A stretch of DNA of 64,000 nt from Candidatus Omnitrophota bacterium (GCA_043826355.1 JBDRQI010000001.1:1-64000), one strand, 5' to 3'; counted from the stretch's first letter, positions 13,734-56,426 are shown. Numbers and translations are program-made. The notes: generated from the sequence alone by a model not told the origin.

Positions 13734-13790
13734 TATTAATTGTTTACGATGTAATGTTTTAAAATTTTCCGGAGAAAAAGAGAAAGAAGG

Positions 13791-14021
13791 TTATGATTTT
13801 TTCCGGATAATCGTAAGGGCGGCGTCCGGGCAGATTAGGGCGCAACGCAGGCAGCCGGTGCATTCGTTGCCGGAGAATTCTACGCCGTAGTAGCCCTTTT
13901 TGTTCTTCTTCTCCGAAACCTTGAGCTGTTTCTTCGGGCAAAAGTAAACGCACAGGCCGCAGCCCTTGCAGTACTTGCTGTCTACAATTACCCGAAATTT
14001 AGGTTTAGTTATGGCTGGCAT
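13791..14021 (-). CDS. 2x[4Fe-4S] ferredoxin (KorD/delta-subunit-like)
   Basis: CKGCGLCVYFCP and CTGCLRCALICPD. Confidence 0.9.
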   Translation of the reverse strand: MPAITKPKFRVIVDSKYCKGCGLCVYFCPKKQLKVSEKKNKKGYYGVEFSGNECTGCLRCALICPDAALTIIRKKS

Positions 14022-14023
14022 AT

Positions 14024-16321
14024 TTATGCGGTTATCGTTAATTTATACCGTTTACCGGGTTCAGTTTGCCACGTTAATTTATCAACGGCATTCTTCGATT
14101 TCATTATCAGCCTGTTTTTACAGGTGACGGTTACTTGACCGGGAACCGGTAGTTTTAGACGGCACGGTCCTCCAAGATTTGAAAAAACGCTGACTGTTCC
14201 CGGCATTCTTTTTTCCCACTCAATACCCACCTCGAATCCGTTATGCGCACAGAGTCCGGTTATTTTTCCTTTAGGCCATGAATTTGGAAGCGCAGGGAGA
14301 ATACGGATAATTTCGTCACGGGACTGAAGAAGCATTTCCGCAATGGCCGCCGTTCCTCCGAGATTGCCGTCTATTTGGAATATACGCGGAGGATGTAAAT
14401 CAAGAAGCGAATTTGTGGCGGATTTTGTTAAAAGATTAAACAAACTCTGGAGCGCCCGCTCTCCCTCGTAAAGTCTCGCAAAACAGCAGGCAAACCATGC
14501 GCTGCTCCAACCGGTGTATCCGCTTCCGTGCGCCAGACGCCGTTCCAGGGATATTTTTGAAGCGGCAGCAAGCCGGGGAGTTTTTTCCGGGGTAATCTGT
14601 TCTCCCGGGAATAGCGCAAAAAGATGTGAAATATGCCTGTGCCCGGGTTCGGCCTCTTCATAATCAACCAGCCATTCCTGTAATTGTCCGTATTTCCCAA
14701 TTTTGAGCGGAGGGAGTTTTTTTAGGATATCTGTCCATTGTTTTCTTTTTTTGGTGTCCGTGTTGAGAATTTTACTTGTGGCAATGGCGTGGGTAAGAAG
14801 GTCGTGGATAAGTTCTATGTCCATCGAAGACCCGATGCAGAGAGAGACAGGGCACGTTCCACCGATAAAGGTGTTTTCCGGGGATTGTGAGGGGACAGGA
14901 ACAAGATATCCTTCGTGGTCCGGAATAAGATATGTTTCATAAAAAGCAGCGACTTCTTTCAGAAAAGGGTAGCATCTCTTTTTCAGAAATTCCTTATCCC
15001 GCGTGTATTCGTAGTGCCACCAGAAATGCTGGGCGAGCCATGCGGCTGCTCCAATCCATGTGTCCCATCCTTTAGATTCGGGAGTGGAGCGTCCCCAGGG
15101 GTCAGTCTGAATGGGCAGCCAGACACCTTCGCAACCATAGAGTTTTTTGGCCGCAATCTTTCCGTGGGGAATAAACCGTTCCACATGGGCGAATAAGGGC
15201 TCGGCGCATTCAGAGAGGTTGCAAATTTCGGCGGGCCAGTAATTCATTTGAAGGTTGACATCATGGTGAAGGTCACATTCCCACGGGGGGTTGAGTTCTT
15301 CGTTCCACTTACCCTGAAGATTTGCCGGAAGGTCGGCTCCCCAGGAACTCGATATCAAAAGATACCGGCCAAAGTTAAAATAGAGGGCGTACAGGGATTC
15401 GTCGGCTTTTTGAACTCTAATATTTGTAAGACGTTGAAAGGTGGATATATCATCCCGGGGACTTCCGATGCTTAAACTTACCCGGTTGTAGCGTTTTTGG
15501 TGTTCGGCGGCATGAGTTTTGAATAACACATCAAAAGAAGAAGGAACTGAATCAAGTTGTTTTCGGCAATTTAAAAGCGGATTTTCATGGTCAAAAGATA
15601 CGGCAGCGGAAAGGATTAAAAGAGCTTCGGAGGAATTTTCAATGTTCATGCTCGCTATGTCTTTTGAAGGTGTGGTAAACATTCCGCCGGTAATGAAAAC
15701 CCTTGCTTCAACGGCAAATCTCAGTTTGTCAATGAATGCGCCGGAGTAACCGAAAGAACTTTTTTCCGCCCATGGCCGGATAGTACATTCCGGGTCGTCA
15801 ATTCTGGAGAGAATAAGGCCGGTATTTAATTTACCTTTGGTTGCAGTCATGCGGATAACGATTACCGGATAAGATGAATGGGCAAAAATTTCCCTGACGT
15901 GGCATGTTTCACCGTCGTTATACGACACCGAAACAAGCGCCTTTTCCATATCAAGCTGATATTTATAATGAGAAACGTTGTTGTGGGGAAAATTCAGAAA
16001 AAGGTCTCCGAGCGGCTGATAGGGGTCCACCCTGTTTTTTTGGTCGCTCATGCCGCCTCCGCCGCCAAGTAATTCGTTTGCGAGTGTGCCGGCTTCATAT
16101 ATTTTTCCCTTTAAAAAGAGGCGTCTGATTTTTTCGAGGTTCTGATATTTTGTTTCAATATCTCTCTTGCAATTTTTCCTTCGCCACAGCCATTCATGAT
16201 TCAACGCCACTCGTTCTTTCTGTATTCCACCCATAACCATCCCGGCTAAAACGCCGTTTCCGATGGGAAGGCCCTCTTTCCATTCCGGGGCGGGTTTTTC
16301 ATACCAGAGTATTGAATTCAT
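14024..16321 (-). CDS. GH95 alpha-L-fucosidase-like glycoside hydrolase
   Basis: LPIGNG, FGRYLLISSS, NLQGKW, NLQMNYW, SPEN, GQLQEW, HRHISHL, FQIDGN. Confidence 0.92.
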   Translation of the reverse strand: MNSILWYEKPAPEWKEGLPIGNGVLAGMVMGGIQKERVALNHEWLWRRKNCKRDIETKYQNLEKIRRLFLKGKIYEAGTLANELLGGGGGMSDQKNRVDPYQPLGDLFLNFPHNNVSHYKYQLDMEKALVSVSYNDGETCHVREIFAHSSYPVIVIRMTATKGKLNTGLILSRIDDPECTIRPWAEKSSFGYSGAFIDKLRFAVEARVFITGGMFTTPSKDIASMNIENSSEALLILSAAVSFDHENPLLNCRKQLDSVPSSFDVLFKTHAAEHQKRYNRVSLSIGSPRDDISTFQRLTNIRVQKADESLYALYFNFGRYLLISSSWGADLPANLQGKWNEELNPPWECDLHHDVNLQMNYWPAEICNLSECAEPLFAHVERFIPHGKIAAKKLYGCEGVWLPIQTDPWGRSTPESKGWDTWIGAAAWLAQHFWWHYEYTRDKEFLKKRCYPFLKEVAAFYETYLIPDHEGYLVPVPSQSPENTFIGGTCPVSLCIGSSMDIELIHDLLTHAIATSKILNTDTKKRKQWTDILKKLPPLKIGKYGQLQEWLVDYEEAEPGHRHISHLFALFPGEQITPEKTPRLAAASKISLERRLAHGSGYTGWSSAWFACCFARLYEGERALQSLFNLLTKSATNSLLDLHPPRIFQIDGNLGGTAAIAEMLLQSRDEIIRILPALPNSWPKGKITGLCAHNGFEVGIEWEKRMPGTVSVFSNLGGPCRLKLPVPGQVTVTCKNRLIMKSKNAVDKLTWQTEPGKRYKLTITA

Positions 16322-26937: not shown

Positions 26938-27255
26938 TTACTGTGTCTTGATTTCCAGAATTTCCACCAGAGAATAAGACTGGCGGTGACCGAACGCCTT
27001 CTTATAGTCTTTTTTCGATTTTCGCTTGAAAACCAGAATCTTCCTATTCTTGCCTTCGGATATTACCTTTGCCTTCACCTTGATTTTGGATAGTTTCTTT
27101 TGGTCGGTTACCACCGTTCCCTCGTCAGAGGTGAAGAGCAGCACCTGGCCGAAGGCAACCTCATTCTTTTTTTGTTCGGGCAGTTTTTCCACTTTCAATT
27201 TCATGCCCGGGGACACGATGTACTGCTTTCCGCCGGTTTCGATTACGGCTTGCAT
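26938..27255 (-). CDS. rplU: 50S ribosomal protein L21
   Basis: MQAVIETGGKQY, GHRQ. Confidence 0.96.
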   Translation of the reverse strand: MQAVIETGGKQYIVSPGMKLKVEKLPEQKKNEVAFGQVLLFTSDEGTVVTDQKKLSKIKVKAKVISEGKNRKILVFKRKSKKDYKKAFGHRQSYSLVEILEIKTQ

Positions 27256-27324
27256 TATGGCCTCCGTTTTTGTTTTTTAACCCTAAAACGTTATATAATA
27301 TCACAAACTTGGGGAAAATACACT

Positions 27325-27627
27325 ATGAAACGGCAGGATGTTACCAAAAAAATTTCTGAAAAGACCGGGCTGGAGCAGAAAGCGATTGCTGAAGTTCTTA
27401 AAATTTTTCTGGTTGAAATCGAAGCCGGTGTTTTAGAAAGAAGGTCCATCCAACTGCGGCCGCTTGGAACATTCGTGGTAAAGAAACGTCGGGCAAAGAT
27501 GGGCCGGAATCCCTTTACCAACGAACCGGTCCCGGTGCCCGAGCATTTCACCCTCACCTTTCGGCCCAGCCGCCGTTTTAAGACAAAACTCAACCAGAAA
27601 CAACCCGGTCAATCTTTCCTTTTTTAA
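27325..27627 (+). CDS. HU/IHF-family DNA-binding protein
   Basis: LGTF, RAKMGRNPFT, FRPS; start moved to ATG 27325. Confidence 0.9.
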   Translation: MKRQDVTKKISEKTGLEQKAIAEVLKIFLVEIEAGVLERRSIQLRPLGTFVVKKRRAKMGRNPFTNEPVPVPEHFTLTFRPSRRFKTKLNQKQPGQSFLF

Positions 27628-27657
27628 CGGGGGTATTTTTTACGCCGCCCGCGGGAC

Positions 27658-28461
27658 ATGTTGAAAATTATAATTTTAGCGCTGGTTCAGGGGTTGGCGG
27701 AATTTCTACCTGTTTCCAGTTCCGGACACCTGGCGCTTATCAATCATTTTTTTCCACGGACCCCGGATGATTTTTTTCTGACGGTTTTTCTGCACGGCGG
27801 GACGCTGTTAGCAACAATAATCTACTTCTGGCCGGATATCGTCCGGCTTTTTGCCGGTCTCCGTCCACAGTCTGAGAAAGGCAGGGAAAGCCGAAAATAT
27901 CTGACGGCCATCATAGCGGGCAGTATTCCGATCGCCACTCTGGGCCTGTTCCTGGAAAAATGGGCGAAAGGTATTTTTATTTCCTTGCCTCTTCTGGCGG
28001 TAATGTTCCTGGTTACCGGGCTGGCGCTGGCGAGCGCCAGTTTAAAACTCCCCCCCCACCCATCCCTCTCCCCCGAGGGGGGAGGTAAGGTGGGGAGGGT
28101 AAATCTTTTTCACGCTTTTATTATCGGCTGCGCGCAACTGGTGGCGGTTTTGCCCGGTATTTCACGCAGCGGCGGTACTATCTCTGCCGGACTCATTTCC
28201 GGCCTTTCCCGGCAGGAGGCATTCCGCTTCTCTTTCCTGCTTTCTCTGCCGGCGGTGGCCGGCGCTTTCGTTATTGAAGGCGTTAAAAGCCTGAAGGCCG
28301 GAATCGCAATTCCCCTGCCGCAGATTGTGATTGGTTTTATGTTAAGTTTTATGTTCGGACTCCTGGCGCTCCATCTTTTACGCCGCCTGGTCCTGGCCGG
28401 CCGCCTGGCCTGGTTCAGCGTCTACCTTCTTGTTTTGGGTCTTTTCACAATGTTTCTTTGA
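27658..28461 (+). CDS. uppP: Undecaprenyl-diphosphate phosphatase, with an in-frame repeat insertion
   Basis: QGLAEFLPVSSSGH, PGISRSG, FSFLLS. Confidence 0.95.
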   Translation: MLKIIILALVQGLAEFLPVSSSGHLALINHFFPRTPDDFFLTVFLHGGTLLATIIYFWPDIVRLFAGLRPQSEKGRESRKYLTAIIAGSIPIATLGLFLEKWAKGIFISLPLLAVMFLVTGLALASASLKLPPHPSLSPEGGGKVGRVNLFHAFIIGCAQLVAVLPGISRSGGTISAGLISGLSRQEAFRFSFLLSLPAVAGAFVIEGVKSLKAGIAIPLPQIVIGFMLSFMFGLLALHLLRRLVLAGRLAWFSVYLLVLGLFTMFL

Positions 28462-28496
28462 TTTAGAAAAATAATTATTCGTAGGCAAATGCCATT

Positions 28497-29759
28497 ATGG
28501 AATTGAAGACCGTTCTTGCTTCCCTTGGAGAGATGGAATTCTATGATGACCTGGTTCCCTGGTGGGATGAAGGAATAATGACGCTGCCTTCGCACCGCCC
28601 ATCATTTTTGAATCCTCCGGAAGTCAAAATATGCCGGGAATGGTGCGGTTTCGAAGCCGCCCTGGATCCCCTGCTGGAAAATGTGGCGAACCGTATTGCC
28701 GGCGACCCGTATTTGTTGCGTCTCGCCTGGTACTTTTATTGGAATATTTTCGAATGTGCGGGACGTTTCTGGAAACGGAGTCCTTCTTTCCAAAGTTCAC
28801 TCGGCGGGGACGGGGGCATTTTATATCTTCTGGTGGCGCTGGGCCTGGTGCCGCGGCTGAGGAATTACCACCAGACGCTCGGCGTGCCGGAGAACGTTAC
28901 CCGTGAAACGTGTCAACAAGTCCGTTGGGTTTGCGGCAACTATGAGCGCGTTCACCAAGGCCGTCGCGGCCTCTTCATACGTCAGCTTACCTGGCTGCAG
29001 CTTTACCTGCGCGGCAACCTATTTTTTCGCCTCGGGCGTTTTGAGTACTGGTTGAATTTTTTCCCGGGCGGACTCCACGTTTTTCGCAACCGCCAGACGG
29101 ACGAAGTTGTTGTTTTGGCTGATGCCGGCAGCGTTTTTACCCGCGAGGGATTCGCGGAACCCGCCGGGCAGGAGAATTCACCGCCGGAGTGCTGGAAGTC
29201 GTCGTTCGTCATGGACGCCGCGGCTGTTAAGGGTTATCCAATCTCACCGTGGGGTAAGGCCATTCGGAACGAAATTTCGTTACCGCTTGATTTGTGGCAA
29301 CCGGCGCTGGTGAAGGGCGACCCGGTTTTATCCCTGCACATTCCTCCCGGCGGCAAGATGGGGATCAACGAATGTGGTGAATCTTTGAATCGCGCGGTGG
29401 AGTTCTTTCGCCGCAATTTTCCTGAAAAACCGCCGGTGGCCATTACCTGTTCTTCCTGGATGTTCAGCCCGCTGCTGGAACAGATTCTGCCGCCCGCTTC
29501 AAATCTGGTGTTGTTCGAGCGAGAACTCTATCTCTATTCCTGTGCGAGCACGGAACTGTCATGGTTATGGTTTGTTTTTCTGCAGGAAAAGCTGGACTTC
29601 AAAACGGCGCCGCGCGAAACCAGTCTGCAGCGTGCAATTCTGGGTTTTCTGGAAGCAGGGCATACCTGGCGTAACGGCAACATGTTTTTTCTCATTGATG
29701 ATTTGAAGCATTTCGGCAAGCAGTATTACCGCAGCAAATGGACGTTAGGGACACCGTGA
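28497..29759 (+). CDS. Acyltransferase-domain / GNAT-like C-terminal domain protein (DUF5596-like)
   Basis: FRLGRFEY, LSLHIPPGG, CSSWMF, ETSLQR. Confidence 0.65.
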   Translation: MELKTVLASLGEMEFYDDLVPWWDEGIMTLPSHRPSFLNPPEVKICREWCGFEAALDPLLENVANRIAGDPYLLRLAWYFYWNIFECAGRFWKRSPSFQSSLGGDGGILYLLVALGLVPRLRNYHQTLGVPENVTRETCQQVRWVCGNYERVHQGRRGLFIRQLTWLQLYLRGNLFFRLGRFEYWLNFFPGGLHVFRNRQTDEVVVLADAGSVFTREGFAEPAGQENSPPECWKSSFVMDAAAVKGYPISPWGKAIRNEISLPLDLWQPALVKGDPVLSLHIPPGGKMGINECGESLNRAVEFFRRNFPEKPPVAITCSSWMFSPLLEQILPPASNLVLFERELYLYSCASTELSWLWFVFLQEKLDFKTAPRETSLQRAILGFLEAGHTWRNGNMFFLIDDLKHFGKQYYRSKWTLGTP

Positions 29760-29826
29760 CGGGAAAACGTCAGGAAACAAGTTTTCGGAGTCGTTTTTAA
29801 AATCCGTTTTTAAGGGAGACAATGAG

Positions 29827-30651
29827 ATGGAAAACACAGCGGAATTATTCAGTTTGAAAGATAAAACCGCGGTAATTACCGGCGGCGCCGGGGTACTTGG
29901 TTTTCAGATGGCGCAGGGTTTAGGCCGGGCCGGCGCCGGCATCATAATCTGCGACGTTAAAAACGCCGAAGCGAAAGCAGGTGAACTGAAAGCGGAAGGG
30001 ATAGCCGCGAAGGGATATTTCATTGATGTTCTCAAGAAGGATGAAATCAAAAAATGCTGTGATGGGGTAAGGAAAGATTTTCCGACCATAGACATCCTGG
30101 TTAATGCGGCCGGCGGAAACATGAAAGAAGCCACCACCTCAAAAGAACTGAGTTTTTTTGACCTACCCCTGACCGCGCTGGAAAAGGTTGTCTCCCTTAA
30201 CCTTTTCGGCGGGGCAATCCTGCCGTCCCAGGTTTTCGGTAAATTTATGGCGGAGAACAAGACCGGCGGTTCCATTATCAATATCTCCTCAATGAACGCT
30301 TTTCGGCCCTTAACCAGGATTCCCGGTTATTCAGCCGCCAAGGCAGCGGTTAACAACTTTACCCAGTGGCTGGCGGTTCATCTGGCGCAGGAATATAACA
30401 AAAATCTCCGGGTCAACGCCATTGCGCCGGGATTTTTTTCCACGGAACAGAACCGTTTTCTTCTTTTTGACGATAAAGGGGAATTGACGGAAAGGGGCAG
30501 GTTAATTATCGCGCATACGCCGATGGGGAAGTTTGGAGAACCGAAAGAGCTGATTGGCGCGCTAATCTACCTGGCTTCCGATGCTTCAAAGTTTGTAACC
30601 GGCGTGGTACTGCCGATAGACGGCGGCTTCAGCGCGTTCTCGGGTGTTTGA
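29827..30651 (+). CDS. SDR oxidoreductase, D-mannonate/fructuronate oxidoreductase-like
   Basis: TGGAGVLG, NAAGGN, SSMNAFRPLTRIPGYSAAK, APGFF. Confidence 0.85.
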   Translation: MENTAELFSLKDKTAVITGGAGVLGFQMAQGLGRAGAGIIICDVKNAEAKAGELKAEGIAAKGYFIDVLKKDEIKKCCDGVRKDFPTIDILVNAAGGNMKEATTSKELSFFDLPLTALEKVVSLNLFGGAILPSQVFGKFMAENKTGGSIINISSMNAFRPLTRIPGYSAAKAAVNNFTQWLAVHLAQEYNKNLRVNAIAPGFFSTEQNRFLLFDDKGELTERGRLIIAHTPMGKFGEPKELIGALIYLASDASKFVTGVVLPIDGGFSAFSGV

Positions 30652-30676
30652 TAAAGTAAAACGCCCCTTTGTGTCA

Positions 30677-30845
30677 GACAAAACTACGCAACTCGTAAGC
30701 GAGCCCCCTTTCCAGAGCTTTGGAAAGGGTACCCGTGCCGTGTTCTCACTTGGAACGCAGGTGAGAACACGGCCACTCACTTCTTCGTTCTGCTTGTTTT
30801 GTGACTGATACTCCGTGAAGTTTTAATTTATCAAACATCCTCGTT
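30677..30845 (+). repeat. ~140-bp dispersed repeat, copy 1 (contains a nested hairpin module)
   Basis: gacaaaactacgcaactc...ccgtgttctca...tgcttgttttgt...atcctcgtt, shared with 41303-41442 and the reverse complement of 38806-38944. Confidence 0.8.
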
Positions 30846-30874
30846 CGCTTAAGTTTATTTTAGGAGGAGATAAA

Positions 30875-32392
30875 ATGCAGAAAGCGGATATTGGATTAAT
30901 TGGCGTGGAGGTAATGGGAAGAAGCCTTGTTCTTAATATGGAGGACAAGGGTTATACGGTAGCGGTCTTCAACCGGACCGCCGAAAAGACCAAGGCGTTT
31001 GCCGAAGGCCCGGCCAAAGGAAGAAAGATTATCCCGACCTATGACCTGAAAGATTTCGTTGCCGCGCTGGAAACTCCGCGGAAGATAATGCTGATGGTCA
31101 AAGAAGGCGCGCCGGTGGATAGCTTCATCGAAAAACTTCTGCCTTTGTTGGACAAAGGCGACCTGATTATTGACGGCGGCAACTCCTTTTTTAAGGACAC
31201 AATTAGACGGAATGCTTATCTAACCGAAAAAGGAATTTTCTTTATCGGCACCGGTGTTTCCGGCGGCGAGGAAGGCGCGCTGAAAGGGCCGGCCATCATC
31301 CCGGGAGGACAACGGGAGGCGTATGCCCTGGTTGAAAAAATATTCATTGATATTTCCGCCAAGGCCTATGATGGCGCGCCCTGCGTCGCCTACATGGGTC
31401 CCGACGGCGCCGGCCATTTCGTGAAGATGGTGCACAACGGAATTGAGTATGGTGACATGGAGATGATCGGCGAGTGCGCCTGGGTCTTCCGGAACGCCCT
31501 GGGTATGAGTTCCGGGGAGATAGCCGATATGCTGGGCGAATGGAACGGCAATAAAGACATCCTGCGTTCGTACCTTGTGGAAATTACGGCCGACAGCATG
31601 AAGGAGAAACACAAAGAGGCCGGTGAATATCTGGTGGACCGGGTGGCTGATATCACGCGGATGAAAGGCACCGGCACCTGGACCATTCAGAGCGCTTTGG
31701 AGCTGTTGGTTCCGATACCCTCGATTGCGGCCGCGGTCTTTTCCCGGGAGATGTCCCAGGATAAGGATTTAAGGTTGAAGATGTCCCGGATATTAACCCT
31801 GCCTGCCCAAAAAAGCAGCGGTAATGCAGGGGAGGGGTTACATCCCCTCCCGCGGGAAGAAATTATTGACCTTGGCCATGATGCACTTTACATCGCCAAG
31901 ATTGCGTCTTATGCCCAGGGCATGGCTTTGCTGCAGGCCGCTTCAAGGGAGTACAAGTTTAATCTGAACTTGGGAAAAATCGCCAAAATTTGGCGCGCCG
32001 GTTGCATCATACGGGCCCAGTTCCTGGACGAAATCAGCAAGGCATACCAGGAGAATCAGAATTTGCCCAACCTTTTGGCCGCCCCGAAATTCGCCGGATT
32101 CGTAAGCCAAAATCTTATGAAACTGGCCCGGTTTATCGGGATTGCCCACAGCGCCGGGTTGCCGGTGATGGCTTTGACCAGCGCTTACGACTATATCGCC
32201 CAGCTGGCCAGCCCGGCCATGTTTTCCGCCCAGGTGGCGGCGCTTCAGCGCGACTATTTCGGCGCCCACGGCTATTTCAAGATTGGCGGTCCAAAAGACC
32301 CGAAACTTGTTACCAACGTTGACGGGAAGGTTCGGGAATACCACACGGAATGGTTATTTGAAGGCCGTCCGGAAAAGGAGATAACCAAATGA
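30875..32392 (+). CDS. gnd: 6-phosphogluconate dehydrogenase (decarboxylating, NADP-type), with an in-frame REP
   Basis: FNRT, DGGNS, SGGEEGA, KMVHNGIEY, KGTG, QRDYFGAH. Confidence 0.95.
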   Translation: MQKADIGLIGVEVMGRSLVLNMEDKGYTVAVFNRTAEKTKAFAEGPAKGRKIIPTYDLKDFVAALETPRKIMLMVKEGAPVDSFIEKLLPLLDKGDLIIDGGNSFFKDTIRRNAYLTEKGIFFIGTGVSGGEEGALKGPAIIPGGQREAYALVEKIFIDISAKAYDGAPCVAYMGPDGAGHFVKMVHNGIEYGDMEMIGECAWVFRNALGMSSGEIADMLGEWNGNKDILRSYLVEITADSMKEKHKEAGEYLVDRVADITRMKGTGTWTIQSALELLVPIPSIAAAVFSREMSQDKDLRLKMSRILTLPAQKSSGNAGEGLHPLPREEIIDLGHDALYIAKIASYAQGMALLQAASREYKFNLNLGKIAKIWRAGCIIRAQFLDEISKAYQENQNLPNLLAAPKFAGFVSQNLMKLARFIGIAHSAGLPVMALTSAYDYIAQLASPAMFSAQVAALQRDYFGAHGYFKIGGPKDPKLVTNVDGKVREYHTEWLFEGRPEKEITK

Positions 32393-33699
32393 AAAATGCG
32401 GTTATCGCCCAGTCCGGAGGACCCACCGCGGTCATCAACAACAGCATCCGCGGCGCAGTTGACGTCCTGAAAGCATCCGGCAAAGTCAGCCGGTTGTACG
32501 GCGCCCGGATGGGTATTATCGGCGTCTTGCAGGAAGAATTACTGGATATTACCGAACAGAGCTCCGACCAGGTAGCCCTTTTGGAACAGACCCCTTCGGC
32601 CGGAGTCTTTGGCAGTTGCCGGTACAAGATAAGGAGCGAAAAGGACCTGAACCGGGTAGTGGCGGTTTTCGCAAAACACGACGTGGGTTATTTCTTTTAC
32701 TGCGGCGGAAATGATTCCATGGACACCGCGGATAAGATTAATAACCTGGCAAAGGAAAAGGGTCTGGACCTGGTTTGCGCCGGGATTGCCAAAACGATTG
32801 ATAATGACGTAGGCGGCGGTTTACAGCCGGACGGCACCTTTGCGATTTGCGACCACAACCCGGGCTACGGCAGCACCATCAGGAGTTTGGCGGTCAATAT
32901 CCTGGAAGCGAACCAGGAGAATAAAGCCAGTTATACCAGCGACCCGGTCCTGGTAATCGGCGTGATGGGCAGGAAGATCGGTTTTATTACCGCCGGCGCC
33001 CGGCTGGCTGACCCGGAACGAAAGATGCCCCTGGTGCTTGTTCTGCCGGAAGCGTTCGGAAAAACAAAGCCGGAAGAGAACCTGGAATATATTACCCGGA
33101 AAGTTAACGAGAAACTGGAAGCGTTCGGGCGCTGCATCGTAGTTGTCAGCGAAGGCGCAAACCTGGGAGATTTGGATATTCTGCGCGACAGTTTCGGCCA
33201 CGAACAGTTCAGCGGTTCCGGCAAAACTACCGAGGGAGTTTTAACCAACTATTTCAACGGTCTGGACCGGAAAGACAGCCGGGGCAGGGCGGAAAGCCGG
33301 CTTAAAATCAGGGGTATTGCCCGCTCGGAAAGACCCGGCACCAAACAGCGCCGTGAAATCGGGACCGTATCCGAAGTAGACCTGTTTGAGGCCTATCAGG
33401 TGGGCGCTGAAGCCGCCCGGATTGCCCTGGAAGGAGAAGGTGGTTTTATGGCTACTATTATCCGGGCGCCCGGCTCAAAGTACCAGGTATCTTTTGACAA
33501 GGTTCTTTTGAAGACGGTGGCTAACGCCGAAAGAAAGTTTCCGGCGGAATGGATTTCCGGAGACAGGATAGACGTAACCGAAGATTTCGTAAGATGGGCC
33601 CTGCCCCTGTTAGGCGGGCCTTTGCCGGTCTTTGCTGATTTCAAGAATGTTTTTGCTCCGAATCTGTGCGGGAAGTACGTTCCTTTTGCCTATCGTTAG
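32389..33699 (+). CDS. Phosphofructokinase-family kinase with a PPi-type signature
   Basis: QSGGPTAVIN, GGNDS, KTIDND, MGR. Confidence 0.85.
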   Translation: MKNAVIAQSGGPTAVINNSIRGAVDVLKASGKVSRLYGARMGIIGVLQEELLDITEQSSDQVALLEQTPSAGVFGSCRYKIRSEKDLNRVVAVFAKHDVGYFFYCGGNDSMDTADKINNLAKEKGLDLVCAGIAKTIDNDVGGGLQPDGTFAICDHNPGYGSTIRSLAVNILEANQENKASYTSDPVLVIGVMGRKIGFITAGARLADPERKMPLVLVLPEAFGKTKPEENLEYITRKVNEKLEAFGRCIVVVSEGANLGDLDILRDSFGHEQFSGSGKTTEGVLTNYFNGLDRKDSRGRAESRLKIRGIARSERPGTKQRREIGTVSEVDLFEAYQVGAEAARIALEGEGGFMATIIRAPGSKYQVSFDKVLLKTVANAERKFPAEWISGDRIDVTEDFVRWALPLLGGPLPVFADFKNVFAPNLCGKYVPFAYR

Positions 33700-33729
33700 G
33701 AAATTAGGGACAACCCCCTAATTTCCTAA
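33696..33729. repeat. aaattagggacaaccccctaattt palindrome (inverted pair at 34786-34857)
   Basis: Hairpin; the same motif occurs twice in inverted orientation at 34786-34857. Confidence 0.8.
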
Positions 33730-33740
33730 TAGGAGAATCT

Positions 33741-34784
33741 ATGCTTTTAACCAAACTTGCCCAGAGAGAGATTAAGGAAGACCCGGAACAGCAATTGAGA
33801 AATTTTAAGCGGACCAAGGATTTTCTGGTGGCCATCGATACCGATGGCTGCGTGACCGACAACATGAACGGAAAGCAAATCCTTATCTTCCATCCCCAGT
33901 ATCTGGAATTTTACCAACTATGGGGGATTGAATCTTATTTCCGGGAAGTGGCCGAGTATTACAACCTTTTTTCCGTCCATCGGGGCTGCAACCGGTTTCT
34001 GGCCGTCCAATTTACCCTAAAAGCGCTGGCGGCCAGAGAAGATGTTGCCGGTGCCGCGGAAGAAAAGGGGGTTTTGCTGCCGGACATAAAACCACTTGAT
34101 GATTACATCGCCTGTTGCAGTCAGAATAATCTGGGTTTGGGAAACCCGAGCCTGGAAAAATTTCTGGCTACCCGGCCCCTGGACCTTGCTATTTATAAAC
34201 TGCTGGGCTGGAGCGAAGCGGTAAACCGGACTTTCCCCTTCGTTAATACCAAAATCCCGCCCTTTGATAACGTAAGCGAGTCCCTGAAACTGATGGCGGA
34301 GAATGCGGATGTCCTGGTAGTTTCCCAGACTCCGTATGAAGACCTGGTCAATTACTGGGATGCCCAGGGGATTTCGGAGCATATCCGTTTTATCGCCGGC
34401 CAGGAAATGGGCAACAAGACACACCACATCCAGGTTGTTAAAGCGGCCGGCGGGTATGAGGACAGCAAGGTGCTGATGCTCGGCGACGGCGACGGTGATT
34501 ACCGGGCGGTTAATAAGAATAACGGACTTTTTTACCCGATACCGGCCGGGCTTGAACAGGAAGCCTGGCGCAAATTTCCGGAAAGGTTTGAACTGTTCTT
34601 AAAAGGGGAATATAAAGGAGAGATTGAAGACAAACTTTTTTCCGAATTTTCCAAAGTTTTACTCAACACGCCGCCCTGGGAAGAACCGGGCTACGACCAC
34701 AAAAAGGCATACCGGGCAAAACAGGAAATCAGAAAGACACTGTACGCAAAACTCAATCCCGGCGGCCGTCTGCTGACACTTTGA
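33741..34784 (+). CDS. HAD-superfamily hydrolase
   Basis: AIDTDGC, VVSQT, MLGDGDGD. Confidence 0.8.
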   Translation: MLLTKLAQREIKEDPEQQLRNFKRTKDFLVAIDTDGCVTDNMNGKQILIFHPQYLEFYQLWGIESYFREVAEYYNLFSVHRGCNRFLAVQFTLKALAAREDVAGAAEEKGVLLPDIKPLDDYIACCSQNNLGLGNPSLEKFLATRPLDLAIYKLLGWSEAVNRTFPFVNTKIPPFDNVSESLKLMAENADVLVVSQTPYEDLVNYWDAQGISEHIRFIAGQEMGNKTHHIQVVKAAGGYEDSKVLMLGDGDGDYRAVNKNNGLFYPIPAGLEQEAWRKFPERFELFLKGEYKGEIEDKLFSEFSKVLLNTPPWEEPGYDHKKAYRAKQEIRKTLYAKLNPGGRLLTL

Positions 34785-34868
34785 GGAAATTAGGGACAGC
34801 CCCCTAATTTTCGCTATTTCGCCTAAATTAAAAAATTAGGGGGCTGTCCCTAATTTCAAAAGGATAAA

Positions 34869-36176
34869 ATGCTATTTGGCAAAGGTAATTCTGAAACCTT
34901 TTTCTCCGACGCAGAGTTGGCATCTCTCTGTGTCGAAGGACTGAAGAAAGGTAATTTCAGCGGTAAAAAAGTTCTGGTAATCATCCCGGATGCCACCCGG
35001 TCCGGCCCGATTAAACTGATCTTCCGGGCAATCTGCGAAGCCCTGCAGCCGCAAGCCGGAAAGGTTGATTTTATCGTTGCCCTGGGAACACATCCGGAGA
35101 TGTCTGAAGAAAAGATAAATGCTCATCTGGGACTGACGGCCGCGGAGAGAAGCGGCAAATTCCGTAATGTTGGAATATTTCAGCACCGTTGGTCTCATTC
35201 TGAGGAATTAAAACAGATAGGTGTTATTGCTGCGGCCCGGGTGGCGGAGATTTCCGCCGGTCTTTTGCGCGAAGATATTCCGGTGACGATAAACAAAAAA
35301 GTTTTTGATTACCAGGAACTTATCCTGGTCGGACCGGTCTTCCCCCACGAAGTAGTCGGATTTTCCGGCGGCTATAAATACCTTTTCCCCGGTATCGCCG
35401 GTCCCCAATTCCTCCATAAATTTCACTGGCTGGGCGCGCTCATCACCAATCCCAAGATAAACGGAACCAAAGATACCCCGGTCAGGCGAGCGCTCAACGA
35501 AGCCGCCTCGTTCCTTAACCTCCCCATTACAAACATTTCTTATGTCGTTAAGGAAAAGAAGGCCTACGGCCTGTACATCGGCGGACAGGGGGCGTGGTCA
35601 ATTGCCGCCGACCTTTCCAGCCGTCTCAATATTCGATATGTTGCAAAGAGTTTCCACACCGTTTTATCAATGGCTCCGGAGATGTACGAAGATATCTGGA
35701 CCGCCGGAAAGTGTATGTATAAACTGGAACCGGTTGTGGCGGACAAAGGAACCCTGATAATTTACGCGCCTCACATTACTGAGGTTTCCTATACTCACGG
35801 AGACGATATCAAGAAGGTGGGTTATCACACCCGCGATTTTTTCTTAAAGCAATGGGATAAATTTAAAGATATTTCAGGGGCCATCCTGGCACATTCTACC
35901 CACGTTAAGGGAATCGGCACCTACACTTTCCTCCCCCCCGGTGGGGGAGGAGGCGTGGTGGGGGGGTATGAAAATCCCCGCGTCAACGTAGTCTTGGCGA
36001 CCGGAATTCCTGAGGAGGAATGCCGGAGAATCAATCTCGGCTACCTGGATTTTCGGAAGATAAGGATTGAAGATTATACCGGCAAGGAGGACCAGGGAAT
36101 TCTGAAAGTGGAAAATGCCGGAGAGATACTTTTCCGCCTGGCCAGTGACATTGTTCCGGACATAGACAAACTATAA
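34869..36176 (+). CDS. Lactate racemase (LarA) homolog; candidate nickel-pincer 2-hydroxyacid/sugar-acid epimerase
   Basis: PDATRS, ALGTH, PHEVVGFSGGYK, FHW, AGKCMYK. Confidence 0.85.
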   Translation: MLFGKGNSETFFSDAELASLCVEGLKKGNFSGKKVLVIIPDATRSGPIKLIFRAICEALQPQAGKVDFIVALGTHPEMSEEKINAHLGLTAAERSGKFRNVGIFQHRWSHSEELKQIGVIAAARVAEISAGLLREDIPVTINKKVFDYQELILVGPVFPHEVVGFSGGYKYLFPGIAGPQFLHKFHWLGALITNPKINGTKDTPVRRALNEAASFLNLPITNISYVVKEKKAYGLYIGGQGAWSIAADLSSRLNIRYVAKSFHTVLSMAPEMYEDIWTAGKCMYKLEPVVADKGTLIIYAPHITEVSYTHGDDIKKVGYHTRDFFLKQWDKFKDISGAILAHSTHVKGIGTYTFLPPGGGGGVVGGYENPRVNVVLATGIPEEECRRINLGYLDFRKIRIEDYTGKEDQGILKVENAGEILFRLASDIVPDIDKL

Positions 36177-36179
36177 AAG

Positions 36180-37598
36180 ATGATAATTAAGCAAAACCAG
36201 GATGAAATTCAAAGTTACCTGGAAGATGCGTCCAATTTCCGGGCCGGCAGCGCGGAAGCGCTCTACGTCCCGGAAAACGAGGCGGAGATAGTTCAGGCGG
36301 TTTTGGAGTGCAGCCGGGAGAAGATTCCCTTAACTATCAACGGCGGCGGCACCGGAACCGTAGCGGGTCGCATTCCGGTGGGCGGCCGTATCCTTACCGT
36401 GGAGAAACTTGACCGTATTCTCTCTGTTGAACCGGAGCGCAGGCGGGCATCGCTGCAGGCCGGAGTGATTGTCGATAACTTCCTGAACTTGCTGGAAAAG
36501 GATAATCTTTTCTACCCCCCCTTCCCTACCGAAAGGACCGCCTTTATTTCGGGAAACGCTTCCACCAACGCCTCCGGCGAGTACAGTTATTATTTCGGGC
36601 CGACCCGCCGATACGTGGAACGGCTGAAAGTTGTTCTTTCCGACGGCGAGATTGTGGAGATAAAAAGAGGCGAGTCATTTGCCGGCCGCGGCGGTTTTTT
36701 AAAAATAGGGTCTAAAAAGGTCAAGACACCTTCCTATGTAACCCCGGACATCAAATGTTCCGCCGGATATTTCTGCCGGCCCGGCATGGACGCCATCGAC
36801 CTTTTTATCGGTTCGGAGGGTACCCTGGGTATTTTTACCGAGGTGGACGTGTCGCTCATACCGTCGCTTTCCAACCGGGTGATTATGGTCTTTTTCTTTT
36901 CCGAAAAAGAACGTCTCCTTGATTTCCTGTCCGTAGTTAAAAGTGATAAGGCCCTTTCCGCTCTTACCCTGGAATATTTTGACAGCCACAGTCTGGATTT
37001 TTTACGGCCGGACTTTCCCAAAATACCGGAGTGCAAATTCGCTTTATACGTTGAAGCGCTGGAAAGCAGTTTGGAAAAATGGCTGGACCTTCTGGAAGGG
37101 TATCCGATTATCGATACCTGGGTGGGCCAGGATGCAAAATCCTATCAGACCCTGATCGATTTCCGGCATCGCCTGCCGGAAAATATTAATGCCTACTTTA
37201 AAAAAATCGGTTCCACCAAGGTTTCCCTTGATTTTGCGGTTCCGGCGGACCGGTTCGCAGAACTCTATACCTATTACCAAAATGTCCGGGAGGCAAATAG
37301 CGACGTAGAAACTATCCTTTTCGGCCACATCGGCGAAAACCATCTTCATTTTAACTATTTTCCCAAAGACCAGAAGGAAAAAGAGCGGGTCAGCCGTCTT
37401 TACGAAGAGGCCGCGGGTAAAGTCATTTCCATGGGCGGGACGATTGCCGCGGAACACGGCATCGGTAAATTGAAACATAAATATCTGGAAATGATGTACG
37501 GCAAGGAAGGAATCTCGCAGATGGCAGCAGTGAAAAAGACGCTGGACCCGGCCGGCATACTTGGGCTTGACAATATTTTTCCCCGCACTTTACTGTAG
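36180..37598 (+). CDS. FAD-linked oxidoreductase, GlcD / D-2-hydroxyacid dehydrogenase-like
   Basis: GGGTG, GNASTNASG, GSEGTLG, GHIGENHLH, AEHGIG. Confidence 0.88.
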   Translation: MIIKQNQDEIQSYLEDASNFRAGSAEALYVPENEAEIVQAVLECSREKIPLTINGGGTGTVAGRIPVGGRILTVEKLDRILSVEPERRRASLQAGVIVDNFLNLLEKDNLFYPPFPTERTAFISGNASTNASGEYSYYFGPTRRYVERLKVVLSDGEIVEIKRGESFAGRGGFLKIGSKKVKTPSYVTPDIKCSAGYFCRPGMDAIDLFIGSEGTLGIFTEVDVSLIPSLSNRVIMVFFFSEKERLLDFLSVVKSDKALSALTLEYFDSHSLDFLRPDFPKIPECKFALYVEALESSLEKWLDLLEGYPIIDTWVGQDAKSYQTLIDFRHRLPENINAYFKKIGSTKVSLDFAVPADRFAELYTYYQNVREANSDVETILFGHIGENHLHFNYFPKDQKEKERVSRLYEEAAGKVISMGGTIAAEHGIGKLKHKYLEMMYGKEGISQMAAVKKTLDPAGILGLDNIFPRTLL

Positions 37599-37672
37599 AG
37601 AGATTTTAATCATCCTTGATTTTCCTCCCCATAGATACGGGGGGGTGGGGCGGGAGTGGAAAAGGGGCTAAA

Positions 37673-38767
37673 ATGTTAAAGGTACCTTTGGCAAAGCCGA
37701 AGCCGGATATTGGAAAATTTCTCAGGGTTATCCGGGGCGAAGAGATACCGGAAAGGCCTCCTCTGGTAGAACTCTTTCTTGACCACGAAATAGTGCGGGA
37801 AATTTCCCGCACCTGCCTTAGCCGTAATTGGACTGAGCCATCCGCAGATTGGGAATCGCAAACCGCCTATTTAAAGAACTGGATAGAGGTATACTATCGG
37901 ATGGGTTACGACTACGTGCGCATGTCCGGCGGTCTTGATTTTTCCGGTAAGAGTCGATTAAGCAAAAACACGGCTGCTCTTTCAACGGGGAATCGGAACT
38001 GGGCCGAAGAAGGCAAAGGCCCGATAAGTACCTGGCAGGAGTTTGAAAATTACCCCTGGCCTAACCCGGGGAAACAAAACTTGCGCGAGTATGAATTTGT
38101 AGCGCAGAACCTGCCGGAAGGGATGGGTCTTTTTGTCTGTCCGGCCAGTGGTTTTCTGGAAATACCCCTGGACAACCTTTTTGGTTATCAGAATCTTTGT
38201 TATCTTCTTTACGACAATCCGAAATTGGTATCCGCCGTCTTTGATAAAGTCGGTCGGATAATATACGAATTTTACGAGCGGCTGCTGGGCCTGCCTAACC
38301 TCTGTGGGTTCTTCCAGGGAGACGACATGGGTTACAAGACCGGCACCTTGATTGCGCCGGACGAAATTCGCAAACATGTATTGCCCTGGCACAAAAAACT
38401 GGCCGCTCTTGCGCACCAGCAGAAACTGGTTTATCTCCTCCACACCTGCGGCAATCTGGAACAGATAACCGGGGATTTGATTGACGACGTGAAGATAGAC
38501 GGCCGTCATTCTTTTGAAGATGAAGGCAATCCGGTCGTAGATTTTAAGAGAAAATACGGCAGCAGGACAGCGGTTCTCGGCGGTGTTGATGTTGACAAGT
38601 TATGCCGCCTGCCGGAGGATGCTTTGCGCACTCATGTGCGGCAGATTATCAAGACCTGTCTGCCTGGCGGCCGCTTTGCTCTGGGCTCCGGAAATACGGT
38701 GGCAAATTACGTACCCATCTCCAACTATTTGGCGATGGTGGAAGAAGGCTTGAACTTTAGAGGGTGA
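37673..38767 (+). CDS. Uroporphyrinogen decarboxylase/MtaA-family protein
   Basis: GDDMG, LHTCG, GGVDVD, GSGNTVANY; start moved to ATG 37673, past a hairpin repeat. Confidence 0.8.
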   Translation: MLKVPLAKPKPDIGKFLRVIRGEEIPERPPLVELFLDHEIVREISRTCLSRNWTEPSADWESQTAYLKNWIEVYYRMGYDYVRMSGGLDFSGKSRLSKNTAALSTGNRNWAEEGKGPISTWQEFENYPWPNPGKQNLREYEFVAQNLPEGMGLFVCPASGFLEIPLDNLFGYQNLCYLLYDNPKLVSAVFDKVGRIIYEFYERLLGLPNLCGFFQGDDMGYKTGTLIAPDEIRKHVLPWHKKLAALAHQQKLVYLLHTCGNLEQITGDLIDDVKIDGRHSFEDEGNPVVDFKRKYGSRTAVLGGVDVDKLCRLPEDALRTHVRQIIKTCLPGGRFALGSGNTVANYVPISNYLAMVEEGLNFRG

Positions 38768-38805
38768 AAACAATCCAAAAGAATTAAAGGATTTTGTATT
38801 TCTTC

Positions 38806-38944
38806 AAGAGAGGTTCGTCTCTTTTGCGGCACTTGCGAAGCGGTAGTGTAAGACAAGCAGAACGAAGGGATGAGTATCCGTGGCTCATACGGAGTAGTAT
38901 TGAGAACACGGAGAGTCTCGTTCCTGAGTTGCGTAGATTTTACC
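38806..38944 (-). repeat. ~140-bp dispersed repeat, copy 2 (inverted)
   Basis: Reverse complement ctacgcaactcaggaacgagactctccgtgttctca...ggatactcatcccttcgttctgcttg matches copy 3. Confidence 0.8.
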
Positions 38945-38986
38945 TGATGCGCAGCGCGTGCAGAAAAAGAGACAACCGAACGCTCT

Positions 38987-39913
38987 ATGATTATTCTGGG
39001 AATTGAAAGTTCCTGCGACGAAACCGCAGCCGCCCTGGTAGCGGACGGCACTAAAATATTGTCTTCCGAGGTTGCCAGCCAGGAGGATATTCACTCTCTT
39101 TACGGCGGAGTGGTTCCGGAACTGGCCAGCCGGCAGCACCTGGAAGTAATCGTGCCCATTTTTAAACGCTGCTTGCAGAAAGCCGGCATCAAAATATCGG
39201 CGGTAAATGCGGTGGCAGCCACCACCGCACCGGGCCTTTCCGGTTCCCTGCTTGTCGGAGACAATTTTGGCCGTGCCGTTGCCCTTGCCCTGGAAGTTCC
39301 GTTTGTACCGGTTAATCATCTTGAAGCGCATCTGGCCGCAAACTTTTTTCCTCAATTGCCGGAATTTCCGGCTCTCGGACTGGTTGTTTCCGGCGGTCAC
39401 TCCTCACTTTTTCTCCTTTCCGGTCCGAACGATTTTCAAGTTTTAGGTGAAACCAGGGATGATGCCGCCGGTGAGACATTTGATAAAATAGCCCGGGTTC
39501 TTTCTTTGTGCTATCCCGGCGGCCCGCCCCTGGAAAGGTTGGCGGCGACCGCGGAAAGCGCAATCCGTTTTCCGCTGCCCGGCGTAAAGAATTCGTACGA
39601 TTTTAGTTTCAGCGGCTTAAAGACCGCAGTTGTTTATTATCTGAAAGAACATCCGGAGGCTGATAAGGCGGCGGTGGCTGCCGGTTTCCAGAATTCGGTG
39701 GTGGAAGGTCTGATACGAAAACTTGAGTATGCCCGTAACCGGCATAAGGTTCGTTCCATCCTGACCGGCGGCGGGGTTCTGGCAAACAATTTTTTGAGGT
39801 CTAAACTCAAAATCTGGGCAGAAGAGAAAGGGATAGGACTGCGGATACCTTCAGTCGCTTTTTCGCTGGATAATGCGGGTATGGTTGCGGTTAGGGCTTT
39901 CTACCTTCTGTAA
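38987..39913 (+). CDS. tsaD: tRNA N6-adenosine threonylcarbamoyltransferase
   Basis: GIESSCDET, GGVVPE, HLEAH, VSGGH, DDAAGETFDK, FSFSGLKT, DNAGM. Confidence 0.97.
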   Translation: MIILGIESSCDETAAALVADGTKILSSEVASQEDIHSLYGGVVPELASRQHLEVIVPIFKRCLQKAGIKISAVNAVAATTAPGLSGSLLVGDNFGRAVALALEVPFVPVNHLEAHLAANFFPQLPEFPALGLVVSGGHSSLFLLSGPNDFQVLGETRDDAAGETFDKIARVLSLCYPGGPPLERLAATAESAIRFPLPGVKNSYDFSFSGLKTAVVYYLKEHPEADKAAVAAGFQNSVVEGLIRKLEYARNRHKVRSILTGGGVLANNFLRSKLKIWAEEKGIGLRIPSVAFSLDNAGMVAVRAFYLL

Positions 39914-55191: not shown

Positions 55192-55236
55192 CCCCTCACT
55201 ATACCTCTCCCCGTCGGGGAGAGGTATAGTGAGGGG
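55192..55236. repeat. Perfect hairpin of the cccctca..tctcccc..ggggaga..gagggg family; probable bidirectional terminator
   Basis: Lies between convergent genes and contains the larC stop; related to 45884-45932. Confidence 0.8.
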
Positions 55237-56365: not shown

Positions 56366-56376
56366 AAAACGGGTTG

Positions 56377-56426
56377 GTAGGGGCACGATTTATCGCGCCC
56401 GCGGGCTTGATGAATCAAGCCCCTAC
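56377..56426. repeat. GTAG...CTAC REP doublet overlapping the yajC stop
   Basis: gtaggggcacgatttatcgcgccc-gc-gggcttgatgaatcaagcccctac. Confidence 0.9.

Follow-up and report, generated by a model that had tools for sequence, protein, structure and literature searches.

Introduction

The closest described counterpart of the locus studied here is the GntE route of Thermotoga maritima, reportedly proposed by Rodionova et al. in 2012 (as cited in PMC7583248 and PMC6978723), in which UxaE, a fructuronate reductase, a hexonate 2-epimerase that has nickel-pincer nucleotide (NPN) as its cofactor, and the 6-phosphogluconate dehydrogenase Gnd are clustered, and UxuA is bypassed. We take the T. maritima operon order to be gnd-uxaR-uxaE-uxaD-gntE-gntK. 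Here we describe a related cluster at positions 29827-37598 of a 64,000-nucleotide (nt) stretch of a Candidatus Omnitrophota genome (GCA_043826355.1 JBDRQI010000001.1:1-64000; the whole stretch is called the window below). It probably encodes the lower half of a catabolic route that leads from keto-uronates into the pentose phosphate pathway by way of a nickel-pincer epimerase, a LarA homolog, together with a phosphofructokinase (PFK)-family paralog, PFK(c), and a HAD-fold protein.

The Thermotoga epimerase, GntE2 or LarAH20 (PDB entry 4NAR), converts D-mannonate to D-gluconate according to Desguin et al. 2020 (PMC7583248). The same paper gives, as the signature of the hexonate pocket, a Glu and a small residue after the catalytic His, the helix 11 motif W-T-A-G-K and a small residue in helix 14, and places Phe-Phe and Val at these positions in the lactate racemase LarA. 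A second related system, in Lactobacillus suebicus, also links mannonate to 6-phosphogluconate and the pentose/phosphoketolase pathway and is also redox-neutral; in that system the substrate is phosphorylated before it is epimerised and no gene is assigned to the epimerase, whereas for the locus described here either step may come first.

The route we propose is the known Thermotoga GntE route, already outlined and with its epimerase activity shown in 2020, and not a new pathway. Beyond it the window offers a new clade of the epimerase, another subfamily of the reductase, an IolB-type isomerase, a lineage nearly without zwf, and the unexplained presence of PFK(c) and the HAD protein in the kinase slot.

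The gene cluster and its candidate epimerase

The window comes from a genome of 1.87 Mb in 38 contigs that is 85.7% complete (the source genome). The cluster consists of the following genes (aa, amino acids; SDR, short-chain dehydrogenase/reductase).

29827-30651, plus strand: SDR of the D-mannonate oxidoreductase/fructuronate reductase type (PRK08277 subfamily), 274 aa; NF006132, 355 bits against a cut-off of 281
30875-32392, plus strand: gnd, decarboxylating 6-phosphogluconate dehydrogenase, 505 aa; TIGR00873, 561 against 426.7 bits, and NF006765, 581 against 413
32389-33699, plus strand: PFK(c), PFK-family paralog, 436 aa; PF00365, 102.9 against 30.9 bits, and NF010675/PRK14072, 332 against 273
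33741-34784, plus strand: HAD-fold protein, 347 aa; HAD motifs I-IV, AlphaFold model and a weak HAD_2 match
34869-36176, plus strand: LarA homolog, candidate NPN-dependent hexonate 2-epimerase, 435 aa; PF09861 (Lar_N), 81.2 against 23.3 bits
36180-37598, plus strand: GlcD/LctD-like FAD-dependent D-2-hydroxyacid dehydrogenase, 472 aa; PF01565 (FAD_binding_4) and PF02913 (FAD-oxidase_C)

All six had been named in the initial annotation, and all are real and co-oriented, with the ATG of PFK(c) overlapping the gnd stop, as described there, by 4 nt. Its statement that the window lacks uxuA, gluconokinase and zwf also stands: no UxuA, gluconokinase or glucose-6-phosphate dehydrogenase domain was found in the 50 large open reading frames (ORFs) of the window scanned for families. 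The route it had suggested, from mannonate through gluconate to 6-phosphogluconate and past UxuA and the 2-keto-3-deoxygluconate (KDG) branch, finds support from comparison only, namely in the likeness to GntE2, the lar genes, the distribution of gnd, zwf and uxuA, and the synteny described below.

In this route, glucuronate and galacturonate would give D-fructuronate, for which an IolB-type isomerase and UxaE, encoded on contigs C8 and C22 of the source genome, are the candidate enzymes. The SDR would reduce fructuronate to D-mannonate, and the NPN-loaded LarA homolog, with its cofactor from LarB, LarC and LarE, would invert C2 to yield D-gluconate, or would do the same on the 6-phosphates. 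Gnd would then turn 6-phosphogluconate into ribulose 5-phosphate and CO2, with Rpe and transketolase (Tkt) leading onward. Phosphorylation, before or after epimerisation, would be carried out by PFK(c) and the HAD protein, which occupy the gntK position of Thermotoga-type operons. What was observed are gene identities, conserved residues, synteny and patterns of presence and absence; from these we infer all substrates, which way the flux runs, and what PFK(c) and the HAD protein do.

Numbered LarAH groups are described in PMC11770544; compared with the characterised sequences available in the PDB, the LarA homolog groups with the hexonate epimerases. Among solved structures 4NAR is nearest to it (E 2.5e-59), and lactate racemase 5HUQ is matched only at E 4e-4; the best NCBIfam model is NF052594, "nickel-dependent putative hexonate epimerase, LarAH18" (NPN_18_hexonate). 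The catalytic and cofactor residues are identical to those of the Thermotoga enzyme. R41, K164 and H180 of GntE2, named in PMC7583248, correspond to R44, K170 and H186; the catalytic Asp/His/His/Lys align to D41, H75, H160 and K281, the loop Glu after the second His to E161 and the Gly before the Lys to G280. All of these are invariant in 16 sequences, eight of the window type and eight of the GntE2 type. With E161-V162 after the catalytic His and W277-T-A-G-K281, the protein carries two elements of the pocket signature given in PMC7583248, and it has a His at the position aligned to N348 of GntE2. A single-histidine LarA subfamily, described in bioRxiv 10.1101/2025.08.19.671153, was considered and set aside because both His residues are present.

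These data bear on the alternative that the LarA homolog is a racemase of lactate or another small 2-hydroxyacid, paired with the GlcD/LctD-like dehydrogenase and adjacent to gnd by coincidence. In its favour, a gap of 3 nt separates the GlcD-like gene from the LarA homolog before it, the solved structure most similar to the GlcD-like protein is LctD, a subunit of lactate dehydrogenase (7QH2, E 1.2e-40), and racemases are commonly paired with stereospecific dehydrogenases. The weak match to 5HUQ, a score of 61 bits on NF033504 against a cut-off of 460, and a pocket with Glu-Val and Gly as in GntE2, not the Phe-Phe/Val that PMC7583248 gives for LarA, all speak against it; moreover, the GlcD-like gene accompanies the cluster in one genus only, unlike SDR, gnd and UxaE, whose linkage extends across phyla. 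We regard the racemase explanation as very improbable.

The genes for the cofactor of the candidate epimerase are present. The initial annotation had correctly placed larC, for the nickel insertion step, at 55199 in the window (336.5 bits), and larB (275 against 175 bits, contig C2) and larE (324 against 150 bits, contig C34) lie elsewhere in the source genome, where the LarA homolog is the single Lar_N gene. The organism appears able to make NPN, with the LarA homolog as its only visible user.

Conservation and substrate supply

Of 61 related genomes of the class, the source genome included, 53 have an ortholog of the LarA homolog at E ≤ 0.001, 48 of them at E ≤ 1e-60; identity is 88-90% inside the genus and 54-75% outside it. 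We fetched 20 loci of the class, choosing long contigs, and compared the neighbourhoods of the LarA homolog by local BLAST and clustering, with Pfam run on representatives. Besides the LarA homolog (20 loci), they hold Gnd (16), SDR (14, at 66-86% identity), HAD (14), UxaE (12), KduI/IolB (10), Tkt (8) and PFK(c) (6), and the recurrent order is SBP5, DUF2344, RNase G, KduI/IolB, SDR, Gnd, [PFK], HAD, LarA homolog, UxaE, Tkt.

The HAD protein was used for a wider sample, for which one genome per species was scanned and the best 80 of 86 relatives were kept, many of these loci being short contigs. PFK(c) and a LarA homolog each occur in 57 of the 80, Gnd in 52, SDR in 44, UxaE in 30, an IolB-like gene in 15 and Tkt in 9. 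The records bear the public labels Omnitrophota, Ratteibacteria, Firestonebacteria, Aerophobetes, Atribacterota, Latescibacterota, Thermotogota, Actinomycetota and TA06, so that the core of the cluster recurs across the class and under at least eight phylum-level labels. Across these labels SDR, Gnd, PFK(c) and HAD share 51-94% identity with the window proteins, and the epimerase falls into two clades. Atribacterota loci encode, in this order, UxaC, UxaE, SDR, Gnd, a GntE2-type LarA homolog, PFK(c) and HAD, after which come genes for an ABC importer and a PfkB kinase. In Thermotogota loci, genes of the Creatininase, GFO/IDH/MocA and Zn-ADH families and one for a DeoR regulator precede the cluster; we take these three to be the families of the T. 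maritima enzymes that lead from inositol to tagaturonate.

In the source genome the ancestral array is split over contigs. An IolB equivalog (TIGR04378, 241.6 bits against 205) stands on contig C8 behind SBP5, DUF2344 and RNase G, and UxaE on contig C22 behind a GFO/IDH/MocA gene. This placement of uxaE and iolB away from the cluster is one difference from the Thermotoga GntE route; another is that an IolB-type isomerase stands for UxaC in many members of the class, and a third is the reductase, which is of the PRK08277 type in the window and PRK08213-like in Thermotoga-type loci. The same-genus genome G002 carries two copies of the gnd-PFK(c)-HAD-LarA block on contigs C24 and C36, each 88-89% identical to the window, which are either a duplication or the product of mixed strains in the bin.

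The distribution of alternative branches is uneven. Among the 61 genomes gnd is present in 58 (54 over the cut-off), and the window copy is the only one found in the source genome; zwf is present in 1 and UxuA in none, and Eda was not found in the source genome at its 85.7% completeness. Since the UxuA/KDG branch was not found in the lineage and zwf occurs in 1 of 61 genomes, no supply of substrate for Gnd other than the cluster is visible; the epimerase likewise appears to be the only visible fate of mannonate.

The same distribution argues against the cluster running in the anabolic direction, with the HAD protein dephosphorylating 6-phosphogluconate and the epimerase and SDR making mannonate and fructuronate for biosynthesis. 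The HAD protein does have the Asp+2 typical of phosphatases, and every step but a phosphatase step is reversible in principle. With zwf in one genome, however, 6-phosphogluconate would have to arise from reductive carboxylation by Gnd, and nothing that would consume free uronate is apparent; UxaC, the inositol-type genes, ABC importers and DeoR regulators, all linked to the cluster, are typical of catabolic clusters. We give this direction very little credence.

The kinase slot

A gluconokinase was not recognised for the catabolic route as proposed. No SKI-type gluconokinase scored above the cut-off in the 61 genomes, and the four FGGY kinases of the source genome are xylulo-, ribulo- and two rhamnulokinase-like, their top families being XylB, AraB or RhaB and in no case gluconokinase, again at 85.7% completeness. 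Assignment was by top-family ranking because a Thermotoga-type GntK in its genuine context, beside GntE2, fails the gntK_FGGY cut-off (369.5 against 648.55 bits), which makes that cut-off unfit as a test of absence. The same Thermotoga-type GntK used as query retrieved only XylB from the source genome. A GHMP kinase was also considered as the missing hexonate kinase and rejected for this genome: the copy in the source genome passes the galactokinase equivalog (298.6 against 226.65 bits) and lies beside a GalE-like gene.

The position of PFK(c) and HAD was examined in Thermotogota, where 28 loci with a GntE2-type gene were fetched from 29 carriers among 151 genomes. Directly downstream of GntE2, 12 loci have the PFK(c)-HAD pair and 9 an FGGY kinase whose top family is gluconokinase (369.5 bits); 6 carry neither, a further one is too short to judge, and none has both. 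The reductase co-varies with this split, the PRK08277 type going with PFK(c)-HAD and the PRK08213-like type with GntK. The window cluster, which has no FGGY gluconokinase, differs from the Thermotoga route in the same way. Among the 61 genomes the genes form nested sets, with PFK(c) in 22, HAD in 40 and the LarA homolog in 53; all 22 genomes with PFK(c) have HAD. Most likely, a dedicated pyrophosphate (PPi)-type PFK(c) and the 347-aa HAD protein supply the phosphorylation step in place of gluconokinase.

PFK(c) resembles the PPi-dependent PFKs of the PRK14072 subfamily, whose cut-off it exceeds. Of the solved structures, the PPi-PFKs 3K2Q and 3HNO match it best, and it carries GG-x-D-S, K-T-I-D-N-D and MGR motifs; we take the GG-x-D and KTIDND positions to be PPi-type determinants. 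It differs from these enzymes in two family insertions, of 10 residues after TIDND and 13 residues before the QR motif, in Pro186, part of an invariant Asp-Pro, where the PPi-PFK relatives have Lys, and in its confinement to the sugar-acid cluster: 22 of 23 PFK(c)-type matches in relatives share a contig with gnd, and the remaining one begins 140 nt away from the end of a contig. Nor is it the housekeeping PFK, as the source genome has two further PfkA-like genes (about 330 bits). These lie in tandem at C28:16879-18853, bringing the PFK-family genes of the genome to three; by the same motif rule, one is PPi-type (GGED/PKTMDND) and one ATP-type (GGDG/PASIDND).

The HAD protein is harder to place. 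It has no NCBIfam match and no PDB relative by sequence or profile, and HAD_2 in Pfam is matched below the cut-off (17.8 bits against 23.8, E 0.0038). Its likeness to the HAD IA phosphatases and phosphomutases of the phosphoglycolate-phosphatase and beta-phosphoglucomutase kinds lies in the core fold, the four catalytic motifs and the Asp+2 general acid/base. The motifs are invariant in 16 aligned homologs (D33-x-D35, S195/T197, K226 and G-D249-x-x-x-D253), and the AlphaFold (AF2) model, with a predicted local distance difference test (pLDDT) score of 88.8, matches HAD IA phosphatases (VIA Z 15.9, residues 26-291, 191-198 aligned). Foldseek returned generic HAD IA matches only, at a probability of 1.00 and a TM-score on the query of at most 0.41, and the ESM Atlas generic HAD clusters only. 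The protein differs from these enzymes in some 150 additional residues, an enlarged cap and terminal extensions, unmatched by solved structures. It has 324 homologs at E ≤ 0.001; among the best 120, identity is 64-100% and almost every protein is 345-348 aa long. The many invariant Arg, Lys and Asn residues of the large cap suggest an anionic substrate; the protein may be a phosphatase, a transferase or an editor. A 286-aa HAD paralog (about 41% identical, without the C-terminal extension) lies directly beside the IolB-type isomerase at C8:7558-9466, where the SDR-gnd part of the cluster is found in other genera.

That PFK(c) and HAD constitute an undescribed PPi-driven phosphorylation module for six-carbon sugar acids, taking over from gluconokinase, is a tentative proposal, which we hold to be possible but doubtful. 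In such a module the HAD protein would be a phosphoryl-transfer partner or editor and not a simple phosphatase. In its boldest variant PFK(c) would phosphorylate the C1 hydroxyl of fructuronate, a role that is chemically attractive because fructuronate is the carboxylate analogue of fructose 6-phosphate (F6P); the SDR and the LarA homolog would then act on phosphorylated intermediates, and the window LarA clade would supply the gene for the orphan 6-phosphomannonate 2-epimerase of L. suebicus extracts. In the literature library searched there was no fructuronate or tagaturonate kinase, no fructuronate or tagaturonate 1-phosphate, no phosphofructuronate, and nothing relevant on Omnitrophota with 6-phosphogluconate dehydrogenase; 6-phosphomannonate turned up in a single paper.

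Several observations weigh against the route as we propose it. The LarA homolog scores 170 bits on NF052594, missing the equivalog cut-off of 500, and has a His at the position aligned to N348 of GntE2. It is only 33-35% identical to GntE2-type proteins, while the GntE2-type protein of a Pseudothermotoga cluster is a true 4NAR ortholog (E 8e-164); the window protein therefore appears to represent a sister clade of GntE2, the closest relative of that group and not a GntE ortholog, which is a further difference from the Thermotoga route. No uronate source is visible in the source genome, where UxaC, GH28 and GH88 were not found and where queries with the Thermotoga-type inositol genes (Creatininase, GFO/IDH/MocA and Zn-ADH) gave only weak family-level matches. 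UxaC is present in one of four same-genus genomes and in 19 of the 61 relatives, so the source genome may lack it through a gap in its assembly. In 21 of the 61 relatives no HAD was found, among them genera that keep the LarA homolog and gnd, and five of the six Thermotogota genomes with neither pair nor FGGY kinase at the locus hold no HAD and no close GntK, so the PFK(c)-HAD pair is not indispensable. A kinase beside a phosphatase-type enzyme has no obvious logic. Finally, a MAFFT alignment with the PfkA-like proteins of the source genome shows that PFK(c) keeps the equivalents of R243 and R252, and so could still act on F6P or sedoheptulose 7-phosphate (S7P). The equivalents of R162, where a Pro follows the invariant Asp, and of H249, where nothing aligns, are lost; we take all four, in E. 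coli PFK numbering, to be 6-phosphate-binding positions.

The last point leads to the chief competing explanation, in which the route runs as described while PFK(c) is a PPi-dependent S7P/F6P kinase serving the non-oxidative pentose pathway downstream of Gnd, the HAD protein is a sugar-(bis)phosphate phosphatase, and the hexonate kinase is encoded elsewhere, for example by one of the two rhamnulokinase-like FGGY paralogs. It accords with the PRK14072 score, the PPi-PFK annotation of the best solved relatives, and the MGR motif and two Arg positions that are kept. Transaldolase, present in 15 of the 61 relatives, was not found in the source genome, Tkt comes after the cluster in 8 of the 20 class loci and in 9 of the 80 HAD loci, and two of the four FGGY kinases score below every equivalog cut-off. 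Yet two canonical PFK genes are already present in the genome, PFK(c) is confined to the cluster and has an Asp-Pro at R162 and nothing at H249, and its position-for-position exclusion with GntK in Thermotogota would go unexplained. PFK(c) and transaldolase, moreover, are not complementary, some relatives (for example G011 and G029) having both, and that pattern does not support PFK(c) as a transaldolase substitute. On balance we consider the S7P/F6P explanation unlikely, if well short of negligible, and keep to the reading that PFK(c) and HAD act on the sugar-acid route.

Neighbouring genes and the rest of the window

The other window features that bear on the cluster are listed here.

37616-38767, plus strand: URO-D/MtaA-like protein, 383 aa; PF01208, 50 bits over residues 190-376
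38987 onward, plus strand: tsaD, the next gene after the URO-D/MtaA-like gene
55199-56386, minus strand: larC, nickel insertion step of NPN cofactor synthesis; PF01969, 336.5 bits
20755-21408, minus strand: rpe, ribulose-phosphate 3-epimerase; PF00834, 238 bits

From SDR to tsaD the spacers are, in order, 223, -4 (the ATGA overlap), 41, 84, 3, 17 and 219 nt. The six-gene operon of the initial annotation holds as far as those genes go; it left out the URO-D/MtaA-like gene, which prolongs the operon 17 nt 3' of the GlcD-like gene, and its first member, the SDR gene, lies 223 nt away from gnd. A scan of 27200-39200 gave 5 promoter-like sites against 9.3 expected and 23 terminator-like sites against 20.0 expected, neither above chance, and operon boundaries were therefore drawn from gene spacing only. 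The SDR-gnd spacer (30652-30874) contains two GC-rich hairpins, at about 30707-30730 and 30741-30771, without T-tracts or an Rfam match, which may be regulatory.

The GlcD-like gene, counted by the initial annotation as part of the cluster, does adjoin the LarA homolog here, and is linked to the cluster only within the same genus. Of the 20 class loci, just 1, from the same genus, has the GlcD-like and URO-D-like genes after the epimerase, and of the 80 HAD loci 3 and 2, respectively, have them; they are recent genus-level additions outside the conserved set. A C2 oxidoreductase nevertheless stands beside the C2 epimerase twice, in non-homologous form: the GlcD-like protein here, and a D-isomer 2-hydroxyacid dehydrogenase in another genus of the class. 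In three loci of that genus (L041, L044 and L047) the same LarA clade is flanked by this dehydrogenase and a galactokinase-like GHMP kinase, with no SDR, gnd or HAD beside it; 10 of its 11 genomes have transaldolase and none has HAD. Five of the ten transaldolase matches (G025, G032, G033, G036 and G039) contain one or two in-frame TGA codons, which could reflect recoding, frameshift or decay. The URO-D/MtaA-like protein has no PDB relative by sequence, and its family is represented by at least 12 paralogs in the 1.87-Mb genome, the closest at C9:28768-29913, an unusual expansion for a genome so small.

A repetitive extragenic palindromic (REP)-like element with the core AATTAGGGACAGCCCCCTAATT occurs on both sides of the HAD gene, at 33702-33723, 34786-34811 and 34832-34857, and in the HAD-LarA spacer forms a perfect 26-nt inverted repeat. 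The genome has 12 copies at up to two mismatches, on contigs C1, C6, C9, C23, C28 and C30. Rfam found no riboswitch, and its two sub-threshold CopA-like matches (35 and 32 bits, where the gathering score is 60) arise because both sit on this repeat.

Elsewhere in the window, a single minus-strand ORF at 711-2039 fuses a GNAT acetyltransferase domain with a beta-keto acid cleavage enzyme (BKACE) domain, and at 11262-16321, also on the minus strand, a GH78-type alpha-L-rhamnosidase-like gene adjoins a GH95 glycosidase gene. Together with the two rhamnulokinase-like genes, these glycosidases point to the use of rhamnose- and fucose-containing glycans, and with rpe and the sugar kinases they fit a sugar-degrading lifestyle.

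Significance

If the proposed route is correct, a class of small-genome uncultured bacteria, labelled Omnitrophota or Ratteibacteria, has Gnd but lacks glucose-6-phosphate dehydrogenase, and Gnd would be fed through a nickel-pincer epimerase, making a rare cofactor part of core carbon metabolism. The conservation of PFK(c) and HAD, at 51-94% identity under at least eight phylum-level labels, is a lead to a new sugar-acid kinase, possibly PPi-dependent. The window LarA clade would become a candidate for the orphan 6-phosphomannonate 2-epimerase of L. suebicus extracts if the 6-phosphate proved to be its substrate. Either a new kinase or a gene for that epimerase would be of interest for engineering the redox-neutral conversion of pectin and uronates.

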